Of a stretch of DNA of 64,000 nucleotides, positions 12,586-50,546 are shown one piece after another. The translations under genes were made by a program, and so were the position numbers. Location: positions 15,629 through 79,628 of the forward strand of contig JAERMQ010000018.1 of the NCBI GenBank assembly GCA_016844745.1, in the 5' to 3' direction. The stretch comes from Ignavibacteria bacterium. GTDB lineage: Bacteria; Bacteroidota; Ignavibacteria; Kapaibacteriales; UBA2268. The notes under the pieces are model-generated. The model saw only the letters and a list, made by a program, of their open reading frames with translations, was not told where the DNA came from and did no database searches. How positions within the stretch are numbered: position 1 is the stretch's first letter; every line of letters begins with the position of its first letter.

Positions 12586-12715
12586 ATAATACAGAGCTGC
12601 GATTGATTCAGTCTATACTCCTTTGCAAATTCGGCAGGCATAGCTGTTTCCGGCTGTACCCTATCGGCTTCAAACCATGTCCGTAGATTTAGGTTGTGAA
12701 GCTCGGAGTTTTATT

Positions 12716-13363
12716 TTAGTTATTACTTATTTTATTATTTATAACCAAATTTAAATTTACAATTATATGATTTAATAATTTTCCTAAATTACAATAAAAT
12801 TCACTTGAAGAATTTTCTATGATTACATTAGCGAAAATTTGAACCCAACTACTAAAATAATTATGATAAAAATTAAATATTATTAAATCAATTAGTTCAG
12901 ACCTATTATAATCACTGATGCTTAAAACTTCATGTTTATTAAAAAATAGGAAATATAAGAATTCTAATTCAGCTATTATATGGTCGGGTAAATCTTTAAA
13001 AGTATTGTTAATTGATAAATCAGCATGGTCATAAATATTCATCACTTGAATTGTTGAATCTCCCATTAATTTACAATCTTCCAAATAATATGAACCATAA
13101 GGAGGCGCAATTACTTTAAAAGGTCCTACAAACAATCTTGCATATTCTACCATTAAATTTTCATTTGGATTTTCAATCAACTGAGATTTCAATTTTTTAA
13201 AAATTTCACCGGTAACAGGTGTGAGTTCCATGAAAGAAATCTCATTTTTTAAAATAAAAATATCGGACAGAAGAAATTCTCTGTTTGGAAATGAGAATAA
13301 ATTCGATAGAACTGAAAATATCAGCTCAATCCTTTTTATTTCGTCAATATTCTTATTCATCAT
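12716..13363 (-). CDS. TorD/DmsD-family redox-enzyme maturation chaperone
   Basis: '[23 protein letters not shown]' is the hallmark of TorD-like chaperones that bind Tat signals of molybdoenzymes. Confidence 0.7.
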
Positions 13364-14177: not shown

Positions 14178-17057
14178 TTATTTTGCTACTACTAATTTTA
14201 CGGCATTTCTCATACCATTTGCTTCGATATTGCAGATATACATTCCACTTTCCAGAATTGATGTATCGATTCTAAGTGTATGGCTTCCAGCTTCTAACAT
14301 GCCATTTGCGATAGTTGTAACTGCTTTACCGTTGGTATTGAACACTCGAATTTTGACGTTCGAAGCAATAGTTAATGTAAAATTGATTGTAGAATAATCT
14401 TTTGCCGGATTGGGATAAATATTGCCCATTATTAAATTGCTTGGTGATGTAGAATTATTTTCAACTATTCCGGTTGTTGCTTTTTCGATTTTAACGCCAA
14501 AGAAGCCACCGTTTCTACAAGTAGAACCGGAAAATCTTTCGTATTCGTCCGGAATAACGTCATTATTGTTCCCACCTCTTGGTGTACCTTTGCTAAAGTC
14601 AAGCGATGCAATTTTACCATAATATTTATGACCTTGTCCATAGGCTTTGGCAACTGTTCCTTCGCGTACTCCTTCCCATAATTTTGCTTTAACTTCGATA
14701 CTGCCGGTTAGTGATGAAATTTTTACCAAATCACCATCTTTAATACCAAGTTTTGCTCCATCTTTAGGATTCAATTTAATAACATCATCCCATGACTCAT
14801 CCCCAGTATCAACTTTATGGAACTCATGATACCAAGCAATATTTGCACTTCTTCCTTCTCTGTTTAATTTTGATTTATAATCAACAAATTCAAACGGGTA
14901 ATCCTTGATATCGCCTTTTCTCATTGGTGGCTCATAATGAGGAACAAATGCCAGTTCGCCTTGTGCAATATAATTATTTGAAGTCATAATATCGTCTATT
15001 GTTGTGGTGTATTTGGTTGCATGTTCGCCTAACACTTTTTTCAAAGTCTCGCTATAAAATTCGAATTTTTTTGTGACAGTACCAAAAGCACCCCAGGTTT
15101 TTTTGTAAGTATATTTGGATGACGATACAATTCCAATCTCTTTAAATTTTTCCCAACCACCTATAGTGTCATAAGCAGGTTTGGATTTTATTTTTGTTGC
15201 AATCTCTGCAAATTCTTCTGCTGTTGTTGGCAAGGCACTTGATTCCGGATCTTTAAATTCTTTTGATAAATAATCATAGAAGTTAGAAAATCCTTTAACT
15301 TTCAATTTTTCTGCAAGTAACCACATAATTTCATTTTCATCTGCTTTTTCATCCCATATTTTCTTAACAATTGGTTGTTGAATTGAATGGAAAGAATATA
15401 AATTAGCAAAGTCATCGCTTGAAGACCATTTTTGTGTAGCAGGATGAGCGGCAGGCAAAACTATATCAGCAAAATGAGTCATTTCTGATGCATTGGTAGT
15501 TATGTGAGCAAAAAATGGAAGCTTTGATAATGCTTCATCCCATCTCTGACCTTGCGTTCCTGAAAAATTGAAGTTACACCAATAACCAATACAAACTTTA
15601 ATATCATAAGGATCCGATTTTATTAACGCATTTGCCACATTATTTGTTACAACTCCACCACCTGATTTACCGCTTGCCATTGCGGGCATATTTTTTGTAC
15701 CTCTTTGGTCAATTTTCTTCTTTGCTGCTCCATCTTTTGCAATTTGGTCAATATAATTAGCATCGCTTGGGAATGAACCTAATGTAACTTTCCCATTTCT
15801 AAGTGTTCCACCTTCATTGTCAATAGAGCCTAATAGACCATTTAAAGCATGTATTGCCATTGAGATGTATGCACCTCTTGGACTCATAACAGGTCCGGGT
15901 CCTAACCACACGCAAGTATTAGGGGCGGCAGCACCCATACCTTTGGCTATTCTAATTATTTGTTCTTTAGGTATTAATGTGATTTTTTCTGCCCAATCCG
16001 GTGTTTTATCTTTTAATTCTAAATTCCACCATTTTACTAACCCACTTGTTTGTGTTTCAGTAAACGAAGATTCATCCACATTCTGACCTGCAACGAAAAG
16101 ATTAGTTCCCCCGTTGAAAGTACCAACAAATTCCTTCGACCACAGACCTTCAGTTAGAATTACATGAGCTAAGGCAGAAGCTAATGCCCCGTCTTCACCC
16201 GGTTTAATTGGAACCCATTCATGTGATTTTACAGCCGAAGCGCTCATTCTTGGGTCAACAGTTACTACAGTTGCCTGGTCTAAAACTGTTCCCATTTTAT
16301 TTATAACATTAGGTATTTGACGATTAGAGCTTAAAGGATCCGATCCCCAAAGAACCAGATATTTTGTTTTCAATAAATCGTAATCACGATAACCCCATAA
16401 ACCTTCAGTATAATATGGTCCAAATTTTTCGGCTTCAGCACACATAGCACTATGTGAAATATAATTAGGAGTACCGAATATTTTTGGTAAATATGTATAT
16501 GGAAAATCAGTCTGCCCTGTTGAATACCTACCTCTCAATAGCATAAATTTTTGAGGTTCATTTGCTGCACGTAGTTCCATCATTTTTGTCGCAATTGTAT
16601 CCAAAGCTTCGTCCCAAGTTATAGGTACAAATCCTGGATTTTCGTTTACACCTTTTTTGGGATTTGTTCTTTTCATAGGAACTTTAACTCTGTCAGGATC
16701 ATATAGTTCCATAATCTGAAGATGTCCTTTGGGACAGCAATAACCTTCATTTGATTTGGATAATTGATTTCCTCTAACTTTGACAACCCTCCCGTTTTGA
16801 ACAAAAAATTCTATTGCGCACCAAGTAGTGCATCCCTGACAAGTAGAAGGTACCCACTTACCTTCATAAGCAAGTAACTTGTCTTTCCCATCACCTTTTT
16901 TTTCAAAAGCTTTGAGTATTGGTGGTGTGGACAAAGCAATAGCTATACCAGCTCCCGTCAATGCAGAAGTTTTAATAAAACTTCTTCTGCTTGAGATAAG
17001 ATTGCTATCCAAGATAGTCTTGTTCTCTAAGGAATCGATTCTTGATTCATTTTGCAT
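14178..17057 (-). CDS. molybdopterin (DMSO-reductase family) oxidoreductase catalytic subunit with Tat signal peptide and T9SS C-terminal sorting domain
   Basis: N-terminal 'SRRSFIKTSALTGAGIAIALS' twin-arginine signal. A C-x2-C-x3-C-x27-C FeS motif and MopB-like body. The last ~85 aa ('IYPNPAKDYSTINF...VFNTNGKAV...AGSHTL...SGMYICNIEANG...KLVVAK') match the type-A T9SS C-terminal domain. Confidence 0.8.
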   Translation of the reverse strand: MQNESRIDSLENKTILDSNLISSRRSFIKTSALTGAGIAIALSTPPILKAFEKKGDGKDKLLAYEGKWVPSTCQGCTTWCAIEFFVQNGRVVKVRGNQLSKSNEGYCCPKGHLQIMELYDPDRVKVPMKRTNPKKGVNENPGFVPITWDEALDTIATKMMELRAANEPQKFMLLRGRYSTGQTDFPYTYLPKIFGTPNYISHSAMCAEAEKFGPYYTEGLWGYRDYDLLKTKYLVLWGSDPLSSNRQIPNVINKMGTVLDQATVVTVDPRMSASAVKSHEWVPIKPGEDGALASALAHVILTEGLWSKEFVGTFNGGTNLFVAGQNVDESSFTETQTSGLVKWWNLELKDKTPDWAEKITLIPKEQIIRIAKGMGAAAPNTCVWLGPGPVMSPRGAYISMAIHALNGLLGSIDNEGGTLRNGKVTLGSFPSDANYIDQIAKDGAAKKKIDQRGTKNMPAMASGKSGGGVVTNNVANALIKSDPYDIKVCIGYWCNFNFSGTQGQRWDEALSKLPFFAHITTNASEMTHFADIVLPAAHPATQKWSSSDDFANLYSFHSIQQPIVKKIWDEKADENEIMWLLAEKLKVKGFSNFYDYLSKEFKDPESSALPTTAEEFAEIATKIKSKPAYDTIGGWEKFKEIGIVSSSKYTYKKTWGAFGTVTKKFEFYSETLKKVLGEHATKYTTTIDDIMTSNNYIAQGELAFVPHYEPPMRKGDIKDYPFEFVDYKSKLNREGRSANIAWYHEFHKVDTGDESWDDVIKLNPKDGAKLGIKDGDLVKISSLTGSIEVKAKLWEGVREGTVAKAYGQGHKYYGKIASLDFSKGTPRGGNNNDVIPDEYERFSGSTCRNGGFFGVKIEKATTGIVENNSTSPSNLIMGNIYPNPAKDYSTINFTLTIASNVKIRVFNTNGKAVTTIANGMLEAGSHTLRIDTSILESGMYICNIEANGMRNAVKLVVAK

Positions 17058-44278: not shown

Positions 44279-44758
44279 TTACTTTCCCTGAACTGTTGGC
44301 AAAGTCATTGTAGTTCTTTGTTTTGGATTATCGCAAACCCCGTCTCCATCAGCATCGATAAAGTTTGGTTTATTATTACCCTGATTTCTCATTCCTGAAC
44401 CGGTTGTTCCTGTTGTAAAATTATCGCAAACACCATCACCATCGGCATCGATGAAATTTGGTTTATTTTTACCCTGATTTCTCATTCCTGCACCTGTTTT
44501 CCCGGTTGCATTATTATCGCAAATCCCATCACCATTTGCATCGATGAAATTTTTACCGTTCATCCCATTTCTACCCAAACCGGCTCCTGCGGTACCTGTT
44601 GGATTGTTATCGCAGATTCCGTCTCCATTTGCATCGATGAACCTCGCTCCTTTAGAAGCAGCCATTTTACCCTTTCCATGTGGCTGGGCAATTGATATTG
44701 AATTCGATATTACCATTGTTACAACAAACAATGCAATTATTCCAATTAATTTCTTCAT
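44279..44758 (-). CDS. secreted repeat protein: 4 x 'NFIDA[ND]GDG[IV]CDN' (Excalibur/EF-hand-like Ca-binding motif)
   Basis: Signal peptide; four near-identical ~23-aa repeats. Confidence 0.6.
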   Translation of the reverse strand: MKKLIGIIALFVVTMVISNSISIAQPHGKGKMAASKGARFIDANGDGICDNNPTGTAGAGLGRNGMNGKNFIDANGDGICDNNATGKTGAGMRNQGKNKPNFIDADGDGVCDNFTTGTTGSGMRNQGNNKPNFIDADGDGVCDNPKQRTTMTLPTVQGK

Positions 44759-44984
44759 TTTAAAATTCCTTTAAATGTTATAAAAATTTATTTCAAATTA
44801 TGGCGCCAAGTAAATTATACACATGAACTGTGCCAAAGATGTAAATAATTGCATTATAAGGAATTAACGAAATTTTTTGAAATTGATAAATATTGAAAAA
44901 CGACAATTTTGTCGTTAAATAAAGCAAATTTGTTGTAAATATTAAATTTATTTTCAGGAGAAAAGAATTAAGCCTTATTTCAGT

Positions 44985-45125
44985 ATCTCAAACCAATTTT
45001 CTGGTCGTTCGACTGATGCTTCAATAGCCTTTTTTAATTTATCCTTGAATTTCCAGCATGTCATCTGCCGCAGTGAAAGCCGTCTTGCAAACTCATAAGA
45101 AGAAATTTCTGAATCCGAAGTATTT
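44985..45125 (-). mobile_element. remnant of IS1595-family transposase N-terminal region (direct repeat of 49660-49800)
   Basis: About 100 bp are ~99% identical to the 3' part of the 49638-50051 ORF. Confidence 0.7.
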
Positions 45126-45143
45126 AAATATTTTTAAAAAATT

Positions 45144-48100
45144 CTATTTCCTGAAATAATTTGTCTTAAAATACAGAACAAATGAAGATATGAAAAATGT
45201 TAGTATAAAGATTGAAATAAGAATCAGAATATCAATCTCAAGGACAAAAGGAAAATATCCATGCTGCAGCAGCTTTCCGGATTTATCAAAAGTGGGGAAG
45301 TAGCAAGGATAAATCATATTGTAATAGGGGACAATAAACTTATGAAATGGGGATTCAAAATCGACGGTTTTTGAAACCAGATTTACCATAGATTCCAATG
45401 ACCATCGAGATATCGTACAATCCGATATAACCCTCAGGAAATGGTTCATTGAACCAATATGCTTAAAAATACCGGCAAAGATTATCTGAGGAATTAAAAT
45501 TAATGGTAAAAAAGAAATTGCAAATTCAATACTGCTTGCTAAAGAAGAAATACAAAGCCCTATTCCTCCTGCTATAACTGATGTAAGGAGAAGAATTAAA
45601 AAAATATAAATAATATCAGCGGGAAGCATTGGAATAAATAAAAAAAGAACAATTAAAAAAGTTATGATTTGCAGAACCGAAATAATGACTAATGAAACAA
45701 ATTTCGAGCTTATATAATTCATAACCTTGAGTGTATATCTATGTTCCCTGATGAAAATAGCTCTTTCAATCACAACATCTTTTACAGAGTTAGTCATACC
45801 TATCCAAATAAAAGATAAAATCATAATAAACAAAAGGTAGAGCAATTTCTGGGCATGCTCTTTATAACCTGTATCTCCGGTGAAGATGATTTTTTTCTGA
45901 TATGAACCATCGAACCATGAGTATTTCTTATTCTCGACTGTATATTGATATTTTTTAATTTGATTGAAAAATTTATTTTTATCAAATATAGGATTCGTGA
46001 AAGCCAGCACCGAAGACTTTCCGAATAATTTGTATTGCCTGAATAATGAGTCATCCTCTTGAGATTTTTTTCTTCTGTCAGGGAGTATTTTTTCCGTCCA
46101 TAATTTTACTTTCTGGGAATCTTCCAGGGCGTTCCAATCATTGACCGAAACTTGCTTATCGGGGTAATTCAAAATATAATAGAAGCTATTTGTTTTGTTT
46201 TGCGGGGAAAGTTTCATTAAATCAATTAACTTTTCCTTGCCAAGTTGCTTCTCGGAGATTACTAATTTATAATTTCCTGCTTTGATTGGAAAGTAGAGTT
46301 CATTGCCTGATTCCAGTTCCTGTTTGGATATTTGATAAGGTCCGATAACAGAATAATAATTTGAGTCGGGATTGTCGGTCGCCGAAGATTGAGAATATAA
46401 AAACAGGGTTTTTGAAGTCAGGTTCCCGATTTTAATATCTTTGCTGAAAGGCGGCAGATACCTTGAGGTTGATGGTCTGGAATAATTTTCAAGTCTTACA
46501 AATTCTTCTTCCGGCTTAAGGTCGGCGAACCGGCTGCCGTCCTGAATAATTCCGGAAAAAATCATACCTAAGAATAGAGCTATAATTGGAGCCTGAAATA
46601 TCAACAGGAATAATGTAATGATATTATTGAATTTCAACTTAAAATTTCTGAAAATCAAAGTTTTAATTTGGGTAATATTCGAAAATTTTTCAAAAACCGG
46701 TTTTACGATTTGAGCCGCTAAATTTGCAATCGATTGAGCTAATTTCTGGTGCGGATGATGAATATAAAACTCATAAGATTCGGATTCAAGGTACTGTTTT
46801 TTCCAATATTCCGGTGGCTGCGATTCCAATGCTTCCAAAATATAAACAGCAGGATTCATATTTGCATCATATTTAATATTGGAATTTTTTTCAAAAAAAT
46901 CTACCGAACGTTTCACAGAGCCAAAATATGCAATTTCACCTTTTTTTGTCAGGATTAGTATTTTATGGAATTTGCTGAAGATTTTTTTCGAAGGTTGGTG
47001 TATAGTTAAAAAAATTGTATTCCCTACATTACTGATTTTAGTAAGCAGATTGATTAACTTTTCGGAATCGGCAGAAGAAAGTCCGGAAGTAGGTTCGTCT
47101 AAAAATAAAATCGATGGGTCGCTCAATAGCTCTATAGCCAAGTTCACTCTTTTTCTTTGACCGCCCGATAAAGCCCCCCGCTTATTCATATCGCCAATTT
47201 TTTTATTTTTTATTTGAAATGAATAAGTGCCGTCTTCGTGCAATTCAGAGAGGTCAAGGCTGATTAGAACATTATCGATAACAGATTCAATATTATGGGT
47301 AGTCAGGTGTGGTAATCTTAGTTTAGCAGCATATATCAGGCACTGTTCAACAGTTAAATCAGGAAAGAGGATATCGTCCTGAGGCAGATAGGCGGTCGAA
47401 AACCTGAAATGGTAGGGATTTTTTGTAATATTGATGTTATTATACAATAAATTCCCACTAATAGATTTATCATTGATTTTATCCACACCTGATAGAATTT
47501 TCAACAAAGTTGATTTGCCTGCTCCACTTGGACCCATTATTCCAACTATTTCTCCTGCGCCGACAGAGAGCGAAATATTATTTAATAATGGAATCGTATG
47601 CCATGAAAAAGGAAATTTGAAATTTTTGATTTTCTTTGAAATATTTAATGCGTCTAACCTGATTTTTCCTTTTATGTGTTGAATATGGATTATCGCTTTT
47701 TCTTCTTTAAGATTGATGGTCAAAATAAAATCACCGAATATCACCGGTTGATTGTAAGAAATCTCGGCTTCCTTTATTTTTTTATTATCAAGGAAAGTTC
47801 CGTAATAAGAATCGCAATCTTCAATACGAAAATTATCGTTATCGAGTTTTCTTATTTGAATATGTTTGTAAGAAATTTTTTCACTAATCAGCACAATATC
47901 ACAATTGGACTGCCCGATAGTTACTTCTTCTTTGCTGAAATCATCGAAAACAAATTCAAGTGGAAATTTCTCAGTTACAAAAAAAGTGTCGTTATCTTTA
48001 AGGAAATCCGGAATAAGGCTTAAATCTAATTTCACATCTTCGATAACTATACTGTCGTTTTCATCTATTAATTTATAATCACCTAAGGAAAGTTTGAATC

Positions 48101-48653
48101 CGTTGATAAATATTGGAACTGGGCTTCTATAACTATTGACAAACCGGGGATAGCTACAGAAAAAATTCCCTTTGCAATTAATAATAGATGCATAAATTTC
48201 TTTTTTATTTAGTTCGGGAAGAATAATTTCGGAATCCTGGGAATTACCAACTTTGAATTCTTCCGATATATCGAAATCAATTATTAAATTGATTTTAACA
48301 TCTAAATTAAAAAGAGGAGCAATTTTAGGATGATTAAAGTCTAAAATGATATCTTTTATTTTGACCCAATCGGCAATAGAAATGATTTCCTTTTTAGTAA
48401 CAATCCTTCTATTGGTTTCAATATCATGGGAATTTTCGTCTAAATTAATAAGTTCATATTGTTGACTTTCAGGGTTATACGTTATAACGGCAGCAAATTC
48501 GGGGATATCCTGCCTGTTAATTTTAATATTACAATAACCTGAACTTCCAATCCAGGTGGTAAAAGTCTCATTGAAATATTGCAGTTTACAATGAGGACAT
48601 TTTTTACTTACGATATGCTCAATTGTTTCATGGCATTTCGGACAAACAAACAT
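45144..48653 (-). CDS. zinc-ribbon + FHA-domain + ABC ATPase + ABC-2 permease fusion (Rv1747-like FHA-regulated ABC exporter)
   Basis: 'CPKCH...CPHC' ribbon; canonical FHA ('GQSNCDIVL...HIQI...GTFLDN'); Walker A 'GPSGAGKST', 'LSGGQRKR' and 'LFLDEPTSGL'; C-terminal 6-TM ABC-2 domain. Confidence 0.75.
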   Translation of the reverse strand: MFVCPKCHETIEHIVSKKCPHCKLQYFNETFTTWIGSSGYCNIKINRQDIPEFAAVITYNPESQQYELINLDENSHDIETNRRIVTKKEIISIADWVKIKDIILDFNHPKIAPLFNLDVKINLIIDFDISEEFKVGNSQDSEIILPELNKKEIYASIINCKGNFFCSYPRFVNSYRSPVPIFINGFKLSLGDYKLIDENDSIVIEDVKLDLSLIPDFLKDNDTFFVTEKFPLEFVFDDFSKEEVTIGQSNCDIVLISEKISYKHIQIRKLDNDNFRIEDCDSYYGTFLDNKKIKEAEISYNQPVIFGDFILTINLKEEKAIIHIQHIKGKIRLDALNISKKIKNFKFPFSWHTIPLLNNISLSVGAGEIVGIMGPSGAGKSTLLKILSGVDKINDKSISGNLLYNNINITKNPYHFRFSTAYLPQDDILFPDLTVEQCLIYAAKLRLPHLTTHNIESVIDNVLISLDLSELHEDGTYSFQIKNKKIGDMNKRGALSGGQRKRVNLAIELLSDPSILFLDEPTSGLSSADSEKLINLLTKISNVGNTIFLTIHQPSKKIFSKFHKILILTKKGEIAYFGSVKRSVDFFEKNSNIKYDANMNPAVYILEALESQPPEYWKKQYLESESYEFYIHHPHQKLAQSIANLAAQIVKPVFEKFSNITQIKTLIFRNFKLKFNNIITLFLLIFQAPIIALFLGMIFSGIIQDGSRFADLKPEEEFVRLENYSRPSTSRYLPPFSKDIKIGNLTSKTLFLYSQSSATDNPDSNYYSVIGPYQISKQELESGNELYFPIKAGNYKLVISEKQLGKEKLIDLMKLSPQNKTNSFYYILNYPDKQVSVNDWNALEDSQKVKLWTEKILPDRRKKSQEDDSLFRQYKLFGKSSVLAFTNPIFDKNKFFNQIKKYQYTVENKKYSWFDGSYQKKIIFTGDTGYKEHAQKLLYLLFIMILSFIWIGMTNSVKDVVIERAIFIREHRYTLKVMNYISSKFVSLVIISVLQIITFLIVLFLFIPMLPADIIYIFLILLLTSVIAGGIGLCISSLASSIEFAISFLPLILIPQIIFAGIFKHIGSMNHFLRVISDCTISRWSLESMVNLVSKTVDFESPFHKFIVPYYNMIYPCYFPTFDKSGKLLQHGYFPFVLEIDILILISIFILTFFISSFVLYFKTNYFRK

Positions 48654-48676
48654 AGACCTCTTTTGTTATTTAACCT

Positions 48677-49456
48677 TTAATCACAATCAACTTTTGTATA
48701 ATTTTTTATAATCTCATCAATACCCAGTTCCATAAATCCTTCCGGTTTTTTCTTATCTATATATTCATAATCAAATTTCAAGTTGATTTTGACAGTATTG
48801 GGCAGGTCTGAATGTGAAAAAATTAGCTTAAATCCGCTTCTTTTAGCAAGGTCATTATCAATAATAATATTTCCTTTGAGGACTAATACACCTCCTAAAG
48901 TTTCTATAGTACCCTCGAGTACTTTAGGTTCGCTTGTGACACCGAAGGATACTATGTCCATCCCTTTTTCTTTATAAGTTTTCAGTTTTTTCAAGGCAAA
49001 TTTGATATTCTGGTATTTCTTTTCAACAACTCCTGATTTCAGGATTTTCGCATAACCCCTTAATACCATTGGAAAAAGAGTATTGTTTATATTGGTTTCA
49101 ACACAATATTCCTTTTTGATAATATTAGCAGTAATTAATGCAGTTGGGTCGGACCAATAAGATACTTTGAATATTCCTTTATTGCTTTGCGAGTAAAAGG
49201 ATTCGTAAATTCCGTTCTTGAAGAATTGTCTGTATATTTTTCCCTTATCGATAAATTGTTCGTTAGCAGAAACTTCGAAATTATGAACAATGAACTTCAT
49301 TTCGTCTTTATAAATTGCATTTTCTTTAACTTTTACCTTATAATCAGAAACATCTTTAGGATTTAAATAATCCTTAAGTTTCAAGGACTGGGAAAATATT
49401 ATTCCGAAGCTGAGGAAACAAATAATTAAAGTGCCGATAAAATAATTTTTTTTCAT
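48677..49456 (-). CDS. secreted hypothetical protein (co-transcribed upstream of the FHA-ABC gene)
   Basis: Signal peptide; 24-bp gap to the downstream gene. Confidence 0.35.
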   Translation of the reverse strand: MKKNYFIGTLIICFLSFGIIFSQSLKLKDYLNPKDVSDYKVKVKENAIYKDEMKFIVHNFEVSANEQFIDKGKIYRQFFKNGIYESFYSQSNKGIFKVSYWSDPTALITANIIKKEYCVETNINNTLFPMVLRGYAKILKSGVVEKKYQNIKFALKKLKTYKEKGMDIVSFGVTSEPKVLEGTIETLGGVLVLKGNIIIDNDLAKRSGFKLIFSHSDLPNTVKINLKFDYEYIDKKKPEGFMELGIDEIIKNYTKVDCD

Positions 49457-49637
49457 AACGTTAAATCTTTTTTATGTTCATAATAATTTAATTTTCAAAA
49501 TCATAAAATTACTTTTAATTAAAACTACAAAATAATATTATAAAATGCAAAAAAAATGAAGTTTCTGTTTACACTTAGTTGCTGGGTATTCAAAAATGTT
49601 ATTTCAAGGAATTGGATTGAGAGAATTGAAGACAAGT

Positions 49638-50051
49638 TTACTTCAGAATCTCAATCCAATTAGCTGCGCTTTCGCCCGATGCTTCAATAGCCTTTTTTAA
49701 TTTATCCTTGAATTTCCAGCATGTCATCTGTCGCAGTGAAAGCCGTCTTGCAAACTCATAAGAAGAAATTTCATCATTGCCTTTGCATACGCTATAAGCA
49801 ATATAGAAAGCCTTACTAATCGAAAATCTGCAATGATGGAAAATTGTACCGGCAGTTGCCGACTCTTCCTTTTTGCATTTGGTACACCTTCTTGAGAAAT
49901 GAGTTTTCCCAGGGCAGCTATTTGTGTTGCCGCATTTTTTGCAAGTAAATCCGGCTGACCACTTCAAATCAGCCAAAAATTCATAACATGCCAAATCGCT
50001 TGTAAACAGGCTTTCTATTTGAGCTTGAGTTAATTCTTTATAAAATATCAT
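49638..50051 (-). CDS. IS1595-family transposase, N-terminal zinc-ribbon/HTH fragment only (no DDE domain)
   Basis: 'CKKCGNT...CPGKTHFSRRCTKCKKEESATAGTIFHHCRFSISKAF' matches the IS1595 N-terminal domain. Truncated at 137 aa. Confidence 0.6.
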   Translation of the reverse strand: MIFYKELTQAQIESLFTSDLACYEFLADLKWSAGFTCKKCGNTNSCPGKTHFSRRCTKCKKEESATAGTIFHHCRFSISKAFYIAYSVCKGNDEISSYEFARRLSLRQMTCWKFKDKLKKAIEASGESAANWIEILK

Positions 50052-50185: not shown

Positions 50186-50303
50186 CTTGTTTAATAATTT
50201 CAATGATAAAAAAATATTTACAATAAAAGTGATACTTATACGATTTAATAATTAACAAATATGTAATTTTGAAAAATATTTATTTGATAAATGAAAGGAA
50301 GTA

Positions 50304-50546
50304 ATGGAAAACAACTGTAAAATTGAAGAGGGCCCAAAAAATTTTAAGGATAGAATAAAATCCTGCGCTTTTCGCAAGACATTAATAGGGATTGTTTTAG
50401 GTGGATTAGGAGGTTTCCTGTATTATTATTTTATCGGCTGCTCCACCGGAAGCTGCGGTATTGCAAGCAATCCTTACTATAGTACCCTCTGGGGAAGTTT
50501 ATTCGGGTTTCTGATTGTTAAAAGCCCATGTCGAAAATGCAATTAA
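50304..50546 (+). CDS. small membrane protein with CxxxxC pairs (unknown)
   Basis: 80 aa, one TM, 'CSTGSCGI'. Located upstream of the TlpA-like gene. Confidence 0.35.
   Translation: MENNCKIEEGPKNFKDRIKSCAFRKTLIGIVLGGLGGFLYYYFIGCSTGSCGIASNPYYSTLWGSLFGFLIVKSPCRKCN

Follow-up and report, generated by a model that had tools for sequence, protein, structure and literature searches.

A two-gene FHA-ABC exporter module probably gained by duplicative insertion at the 3' end of a small zinc-ribbon gene in an Ignavibacteria genome

How two genes came to stand between two copies of part of a third is the question raised by a locus in a metagenome-assembled genome (MAG) of an Ignavibacteria bacterium (assembly GCA_016844745.1, contig JAERMQ010000018.1), from which a 64-kb stretch with 35% GC, hereafter the window, was analyzed. 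The two genes encode a 259-amino-acid (aa) protein and a 1169-aa fusion of a forkhead-associated (FHA) domain with an ATP-binding cassette (ABC) transporter, and the third encodes ORF137, a 137-aa zinc-ribbon protein named here after its open reading frame (ORF). A preliminary description of this DNA regarded ORF137 as a truncated transposase of the insertion sequence (IS) family IS1595 and proposed IS-mediated acquisition or duplication of the cassette. We propose instead that the two-gene module was probably gained by recombination-driven duplicative insertion at the 3' end of the ORF137 gene, and not by IS activity.

The direct repeat is the primary evidence. By blastn, the last 135 nucleotides (nt) of the ORF137 gene recur in the same orientation at a start-to-start spacing of 4663 nt, with 91.9% identity (E=5e-52), which confirms the repeat and its orientation as first described. 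The ORF list likewise confirms that exactly two genes lie between the copies, both on the minus strand, as is ORF137. The repeat had been given as about 100 bp at 45010-45110 with about 99% identity; this figure holds for a core, in which 92 of 93 nt are identical, but the homology runs on to the stop codon at 44975 through a tail stretch in which only 32 of 42 nt are identical (Fisher p=3e-5 for the difference between core and tail). Outside the repeat, identity is at chance level on both sides (9/34 and 12/58). The homology begins in the middle of the gene, and the left copy, which lacks the 5' part of ORF137, translates in frame into the last 47 residues of the protein with 83% aa identity (tblastn E=2e-21). 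Neither blastn nor tblastn found a third copy of the repeat or a further ORF137 fragment in the window, and a 38-mer from the core gave 0 matches in the genome contig collection. A widespread intergenic repeat was dropped as a candidate, the repeat being coding, in frame and unique to the locus.

The two parts of the repeat appear to have different histories. Between species, the ORF137 core is almost invariant as protein, and its DNA is identical at just 72-73 of 93 positions; the 92/93 seen within this genome therefore indicates a recent common origin of the two cores, by duplication or conversion. The two tails, tail A in ORF137 and tail B in the left copy, differ almost as much as the tails of orthologues do (27-29/42 between species). 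Tail B (ERPENW..EILK) encodes an ending, EASVERPENWFEILK followed by the stop codon, that is typical of the family; its sequence in the fragment, SVERPENWFEILK, may be compared with SGERPENWMEILK in the homologue P0010, and a tail-A-like homologue, P0002, ends in ESGESSKNWIEILK. Judged by these endings, tail B is a normal family variant and not a product of random decay. The left repeat was accordingly interpreted as the displaced original 3' end of the ORF137 gene.

Whether ORF137 is the remnant of a transposase determines how the repeat is to be read. Pfam detected in it the zinc ribbon PF12760 alone (E=1.3e-7), and neither Pfam nor NCBIfam detected a DDE catalytic domain. The NCBIfam model for IS1595 transposases, NF033547, scored 24.7 bits against a cutoff of 75 bits, and this match joined ORF137 residues 74-125 to model positions 2-55 of 215; the sole PHROG match, a profile of transposase length (344 positions), was confined to its positions 10-130. 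Among 1618 relatives found, the 120 best were 132-161 aa long, 62-80% identical to ORF137 and distributed over Ignavibacteria, Kapabacteria and Bacteroidota, including contigs of megabase size; 41 of them had exactly 137 aa and none was longer than 161 aa. The family has a common end point with an alike tail (...NWIEILK). Genuine 300-aa IS1595 transposases, encoded on Chondrinema plasmids, aligned with ORF137 residues 1-125, and only along their own first 125 residues, at 38-41% identity (38-40% for examples such as WP_284687978.1 from Chondrinema litorale plasmids). Their zinc-ribbon and helical N-terminal region is thus common to both groups, but ORF137 stops where the DDE catalytic domain would start. 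Unlike IS1595 elements, ORF137 is found at one locus in each of 50 genomes (50 different assemblies), often beside a DUF6132 gene and without credible IS ends. We compared 54 ORF137 loci, namely 50 from the genome contig collection (one per assembly, with up to 10 kb on each side) and four others (L001-L004), and no second copy or fragment of ORF137 was seen in them apart from a distant second homologue in L060. The label of truncated transposase was therefore abandoned: the protein is full length for its family, lacks the DDE domain and has a single locus per genome. By these comparisons, ORF137 is a complete, conserved small protein whose origin is the DNA-binding N-terminal part of IS1595 transposases.

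The function of ORF137 is most likely that of a DNA-binding regulator. An AlphaFold2 (AF2) model with a predicted local distance difference test score (pLDDT) of 72 has two helices at its N-terminus, followed by a beta unit with the zinc ribbon, and ends in three to four helices. Foldseek searches with this model returned just generic zinc-ribbon proteins and none at E<0.5, a sequence search of the PDB with the ORF137 profile gave 0 matches, and no functional study was found in the literature on PF12760. In a database search ORF137 was 100% identical to HW421_1550, and the ABC protein to HW421_1548; exact-product look-ups for the two proteins matched no record. An ORF137-like module also forms the C-terminal end of a 629-aa protein annotated as '7TM diverse intracellular signaling domain' on plasmid p1 of Flammeovirga kamogawensis (NZ_CP076130.1; L062, 1061-2950), with 41% identity across the whole 137 aa. 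This fusion suggests a role for the IS1595-derived module as the output domain of membrane receptors, and an exapted DNA-binding output domain behaves in this way. Some stand-alone members of the family are mislabelled 'LadS' by the Joint Genome Institute (JGI).

The surroundings of ORF137 help to tell the ancestral chromosome from the insert. On its 5' side, a divergent gene encodes a DUF6132 membrane protein, and the same divergent pairing occurs in L001-L004 and in the contig of P0003, with DUF6132 homologues just upstream of the ORF137 orthologue in L012, L014, L016, L017 and L019 as well. This neighbourhood spans two phyla (Ignavibacteria, Kapabacteria and a Bacteroidetes MAG), and the gene downstream of ORF137 differs in each lineage seen. 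DUF6132 is thus a conserved native neighbour that marks its side as ancestral chromosome, and it may point to the regulatory target of ORF137. The DUF6132 gene often adjoins methyltransferase, radical-SAM and thioredoxin genes.

The two genes between the repeats form a conserved two-gene module. In four other loci (L005-L008), the 259-aa gene stands immediately upstream of the ABC gene (59-62% and 58-67% aa identity), and a fifth (L009) contains the ABC gene with 81% identity. The flanks of the module differ in every one of these five loci, and at DNA level only the two coding regions are similar; on the left side of the insert the similarity ends at the ABC stop codon, and the 181-nt spacer on the right resembles neither the left flank nor the orthologous loci. 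The spacer has no terminator-like site on the minus strand. The 259-aa protein has a signal-peptide-like N-terminus and no match in Pfam, NCBIfam, PADLOC, PHROG or the PDB (0 matches in a PDB sequence search). With the module, PADLOC gave just generic ABC-ATPase matches, and the module is thus not a recognised defence system. In L006 (4068-11504), L007 (348-7784) and L008 (1-5322), the pair directly follows an operon for a multihaem cytochrome c, 4Fe-4S and NrfD-type oxidoreductase, with gaps of 12-15 nt, which hints at a functional link between the pair and a respiratory complex.

Contigs from other assemblies provide a view of what may be the locus without the module. Three of them (L063, L064 and L065, from three assemblies) are 100% identical to the window flank at the 159-aa gene that lies to the left of the repeat. 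One of the three, contig k141_114569 of the European Nucleotide Archive (ENA; L063), starts with 21 nt, AGCGTATGCAAAGGCAATGAT, that correspond to the body of ORF137 (window 49793-49773) and not to the ABC junction, and continues through the core in its G variant, tail B, the 159-aa gene and part of a 373-aa gene with 100% identity to window 45109-43626. In this contig, tail B and the following gene therefore come straight after the ORF137 body, the ABC module is missing, and the arrangement resembles an empty site. Further contigs from these three samples match the window at 100% identity and carry tail A together with the 259-aa and ABC genes; occupied and empty arrangements apparently coexist in the community. 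Several contigs break at landmarks of the repeat: L063 begins at window 49793, 21 nt upstream of the repeat edge, the JGI contig L065 begins 1 nt inside that edge (window 45108), and a second ENA contig, L067, begins at window 49730, the first base after the sole core mismatch. These breaks may reflect branches of the assembly graph or coexisting structural variants.

We propose the following history. The ancestral order would have been the DUF6132 gene, divergent from ORF137 with core and tail B, then the 159-aa gene, the 373-aa gene and a copper-resistance cluster. A segment of 4663 bp, comprising a foreign tail A, the 181-nt spacer, the 259-aa gene, the FHA-ABC gene and 34 nt, would have entered the 3' end of ORF137 and, in doing so, duplicated 93 nt of the recipient's own core; any register of the boundaries within the 93-nt core is equivalent. 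The route may have been a homologous crossover in the conserved core together with an illegitimate join, or a Campbell-type integration of a circularised fragment. Both cores would then be recipient sequence and hence 99% identical, and tail A would have arrived with the insert and hence be divergent from tail B. ORF137 would have remained intact with its last 13 codons replaced, two new genes would be read in its direction, and the old 3' end would be left as a dead fragment. The 93-nt repeats would also allow RecA-type loss of the insert, by which forms with and without it could coexist. The cargo, in this account, would be a secreted 259-aa partner and a homodimerising exporter of the ABC-2 type. 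Pfam was run on 48 of the 51 ORFs of at least 120 aa in the window, the other three, at 60.3-63.5 kb, being named by homology as MerR, molybdopterin and Fer4 proteins, and none of the 48 had a transposase or integrase domain; Rfam and tRNA scans gave nothing in the region and no tRNA gene near the insert. The lack of a transposase or integrase, of a nearby tRNA and of fragments in the 54 other loci favours one-off recombination over a dedicated mobile element. Of the claim of IS-mediated acquisition, the acquisition was upheld by a contig from another assembly that lacks the cassette, and the IS mediation was not.

Several observations weigh against this history. The support for an empty site consists of the 21 nt with which a single short contig begins, and these could instead be part of a full second copy of ORF137; the occupied junction, in which the ABC gene, the 34 nt and the core follow one another, is seen in this MAG contig only. 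No donor with tail-A ORF137, the 259-aa gene and the ABC gene in adjacency was found: the module is absent from all 50 ORF137 loci of the contig collection (up to 10 kb on each side), no ABC module stands beside ORF137 in other genomes, and the five module loci contain no ORF137 sequence. The insert has a GC content of 30-35%, the same as its surroundings, and forms no compositional island in the GC profile. The recombination mechanism is read solely from the anatomy of the locus, and the full-length AF2 model of the ABC fusion is poor (pLDDT 58.6) and unfit for a fold search.

Some of these observations can be accommodated by other histories of the locus. A rather unlikely one supposes that two complete paralogues once existed, one (copy A) preceding the ABC pair and the other (copy B, with tail B) preceding the 159-aa gene, and that conversion homogenised their cores; an illegitimate deletion would then have taken the 5' two-thirds of copy B, and L063 would derive from a strain with copy B intact. 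The 21 nt of ORF137 body in L063 fit this history as well as an empty site, and the juxtaposition of 92/93 and 32/42 has the look of a conversion tract that ends at the variable tail. However, ORF137 occurs once in each of the 50 genomes with no second match in its loci, gene conversion is inefficient between copies about 78% identical, and at least three events (duplication or acquisition, conversion and deletion) are needed instead of one. A further comparison is with integrative islands such as NBU1, at a tRNA-Leu gene of Bacteroides, and P4-like islands, which target the 3' end of a tRNA or protein gene and bring along a substitute for it; Campbell-type or duplicative insertions produced by homologous recombination are comparable, too. 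As in these cases, the repeats derive from the 3' end of the target, the target is kept intact through an incoming tail, the old tail is displaced, and an empty-site-like contig (with its 21 nt of body) exists in the same population; the contig ends at repeat landmarks also hint at coexisting forms. A site-specific genomic islet with a copy of the ORF137 3' end as attP, served by a tyrosine or serine recombinase that is encoded elsewhere or since lost, is nevertheless improbable: neither the unit, with its two-gene cargo, nor any ORF scanned in the window encodes an integrase, the 3' fragment is absent from the 54 other ORF137 loci and the site is thus not a recurrent att site, the module occurs in five other loci in unrelated contexts without ORF137, and viral contigs searched for the 259-aa protein and the junction sequence gave no match. 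Moreover, att cores are usually shorter than 93 nt, and near-identity over such a length is more in keeping with homologous recombination. It is quite improbable, too, that the unit is a minimal mobile cassette without a recombinase of its own, able to enter and leave the 3' end of ORF137; its guide might then be ORF137 itself, as a transposase-derived DNA-binding protein, or a recombinase in trans. If this were true, the coincidences of contig ends in three samples would represent occupied, empty and excised forms coexisting.

An assembly artefact, in which two strains, or a collapsed repeat, were wrongly joined in the MAG contig by way of the 93-nt core, is very improbable. The source is indeed a metagenome-assembled genome, other assemblies of the population break at or inside the repeat, and the junction of the ABC gene, 34 nt and core was not recovered elsewhere. 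On the other hand, a de Bruijn assembler could hardly invent 45110-45143 beside the core, and a partial ORF137 copy would therefore have to exist in the reads; in three other contigs, tail B goes together with the G variant that lies 41 nt from the junction; and a 93-nt repeat is probably shorter than typical reads. Scarcely credible, finally, is IS activity, by which ORF137 as a truncated IS1595 transposase would have brought about a composite-transposon-like capture or an IS-mediated duplication. The IS1595 zinc-ribbon domain and the resemblance of ORF137 to the N-termini of these transposases speak for it, as does a weak inverted pair of 35 nt (71% complementary) that flanks ORF137 at 49489-49523 and 50244-50278. 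This AT-rich pair is, however, 1 of 28 similar pairs in 9.5 kb and no better than the 27 others, which arise by chance in AT-rich DNA; the similarity between the repeats extends from mid-gene to the stop codon and is not located at IS ends; no intact IS occurs in the window; and a full-length, single-locus protein without a DDE domain, whose DUF6132 neighbour recurs across two phyla, does not behave as an IS remnant. Duplicative insertion by recombination remains the history that we favour, and the features that it connects are collected in the table.

Table. Features of the ORF137 locus and its surroundings (positions in the window).
Feature	Position	Strand	Description	Basis
Secreted repeat protein gene	44279..44758	-	159 aa; directly follows ORF137 (tail B) in L063	
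Left repeat	44975..45109	-	interpreted as promoterless relic; last 44 codons and stop of ORF137 gene	blastn, tblastn, identity profile
Core / tail B	45017-45109 / 44975-45016	-	parts of left repeat	
Junction	45110..45143	.	34 nt, AT-rich, between ABC stop codon and relic; one edge of putative insert	
FHA-ABC gene	45144..48653	-	1169-aa single-chain ABC half-transporter	
259-aa gene	48677..49456	-	signal-peptide-like N-terminus, no known domain	
Spacer	49457..49637	.	181 nt between ORF137 and 259-aa gene; part of putative inserted segment	
ORF137	49638..50051	-	intact 137-aa stand-alone protein, zinc ribbon and helical region	
Right repeat	49638..49772	-	within ORF137; core 49680-49772, tail A 49638-49679	
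Putative inserted unit, one way drawn	45017..49679	-	4663 bp; tail A, spacer, 259-aa gene, FHA-ABC gene, 34 nt, second core	
DUF6132 membrane-protein gene	50304..50546	+	80 aa, Cys-rich, divergent from ORF137	Pfam

In the FHA-ABC protein, Pfam placed an FHA domain at residues 244-307 (E=6e-13), ABC_tran at 357-523 (E=9e-28) and ABC2_membrane at 931-1091 (E=2e-21). From these matches, an alignment of 10 orthologues and the low-confidence AF2 model (pLDDT as above), the chain was laid out as a zinc ribbon (residues 4-22), beta-rich modules at about 30-110 and about 120-215, the FHA domain, the ATPase to about 611, a first transmembrane segment at about 680-700, a beta-rich extracytoplasmic domain of about 230 aa, and the ABC-2 region at 908-1157. 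The putative N-terminal zinc ribbon is suggested by a CxxC-x11-CxxC pattern conserved in 9 of the 10 orthologues; Pfam reported no zinc-ribbon family in the protein at E ≤ 0.01. The transporter part is ABCG-like, with a match to NCBIfam TIGR00955 (E=1.7e-78) that lies under the cutoff of that model. The overall fusion of zinc ribbon, FHA, ABC and ABC-2 parts that had been described was therefore retained, with just one FHA domain detected in place of the 'FHA domains' named there.

Fusions of FHA, ABC and ABC-2 domains are common, with 3660 database proteins at E ≤ 1e-20 from many phyla; nearly all of 120 that were listed have FHA, ABC_tran and ABC2_membrane, and such proteins are annotated as 'FHA domain-containing protein / ABC-type multidrug transport system ATPase'. 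The domain order of the window protein is identical to that of the fusions in Ignavibacteriota, Myxococcota, Acidobacteriota and Chloroflexota, but its N-terminus and extracytoplasmic insert are restricted to a small clade of 12 sequences of about 1160 aa (P0122-P0133, 45-81% identity); in relatives beyond this clade, about 40% of the protein is aligned.

The preliminary description had likened the protein to Rv1747 of Mycobacterium tuberculosis, an FHA-containing ABC exporter regulated by the kinase PknF (PMC3138270, PMC3908365, PMC8339232). Both proteins combine in one chain an N-terminal FHA region, an ABC ATPase and a C-terminal ABC-2 or ABCG-like membrane domain, and both are half-transporters and presumably exporters. 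Rv1747, however, has two FHA domains, whereas one is detectable by Pfam in the window protein, and is in an operon with pknF, whereas no kinase gene is adjacent here or present in the window; the window protein adds the zinc ribbon, the two beta-modules and the extracytoplasmic domain of about 230 aa, and is accompanied by a constant gene for a secreted 259-aa partner. That no Ser/Thr kinase is visible in the window was borne out by the absence of a Pkinase domain from the 48 Pfam-scanned ORFs and by the homology-based identities of the other three, and no such kinase is listed as adjoining the ABC orthologues in L005-L009.

The FHA pocket itself was examined in a residue register obtained by alignment to GarA and other solved FHA domains. 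The canonical phosphothreonine-binding residues are Gly-Arg, Ser-x-x-His and Asn-Gly; Ser-x-x-His is conserved here, as is the Ser...Gly of the third motif. Across the 10 orthologues, Ser261 is nearly invariant, and His264, Ser282 and Gly285 are invariant; the position of the phosphate-binding Arg is occupied by Gln in the window protein and by Q, L, K or H in the orthologues, and that of the Asn of the phosphothreonine pocket by Y, F, N or T. A phmmer search of the PDB with the N-terminal 330 residues (E ≤ 1) returned FHA domains such as that of GarA and no chain named Rv1747. The two upstream beta-modules share an 'xGxSxxCxI' start, and hhalign comparisons among the three N-terminal modules gave probabilities of 11-25%, which are not significant. 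Exporters of the Rv1747 type have a phosphorylated disordered linker between their FHA domains; in the window protein, residues 171-231 are of low confidence in the AF2 model. The resemblance to Rv1747 stands with regard to the FHA, ABC and ABC-2 parts in one chain; with the canonical Arg and Asn not conserved and no adjacent kinase, the analogy is superficial, and phosphothreonine control in the manner of Rv1747 is not supported. By its sequence, the protein is best described as a putative exporter of the ABC-2 type that has an FHA fold as a module for regulation or interaction, and its cytoplasmic N-terminus probably gates or localises transport via protein-protein contacts.

Other features of the window lie outside the proposed insertion. 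The 159-aa protein encoded to the left of the repeat has four tandem 31-aa repeats, 'NFIDA[ND]GDG[IV]CDN', with a period of 93 nt, belongs to no Pfam family and faintly resembles part of the gliding lipoprotein CglD. A large copper and heavy-metal cluster (21583-44205) lies immediately downstream of the relic and contains genes for CueP, a CusB-like fusion with HMBD domains, an outer-membrane factor and a CusA-like RND pump, as well as for an HMBD protein, a histidine kinase, a multicopper oxidase and cupredoxin-like proteins. Further away, a 959-aa molybdopterin oxidoreductase (14178-17057, minus strand) carries a C-terminal Por_Secre_tail, a sorting domain of type IX secretion, which is an unusual export signal for a molybdoenzyme and is found on several neighbouring proteins as well. 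A Moco riboswitch (RF01055, 80 bits; 12602-12720, minus strand) lies upstream of MoaA, MOSC and MoeA genes.

These data have consequences for the annotation of both protein families. Outside Actinobacteria, the FHA domains fused to ABC exporters may have no phosphothreonine pocket, and 'kinase-regulated' is not to be assumed for them. Proteins with PF12760 only are labelled 'transposase' by some sources, and at least one survey has annotated transposases by means of PF12760; this is an annotation trap, and counting the ORF137 family as mobile elements would mislead analyses of the mobilome. The family is widespread, conserved and stand-alone, and its members are likely DNA-binding regulators. 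The locus represents an ordinary, known kind of event and opens no long-standing question; as reconstructed here, it would be a natural example of gene gain by duplicative insertion, in which the target gene is kept intact by means of a new C-terminal tail.

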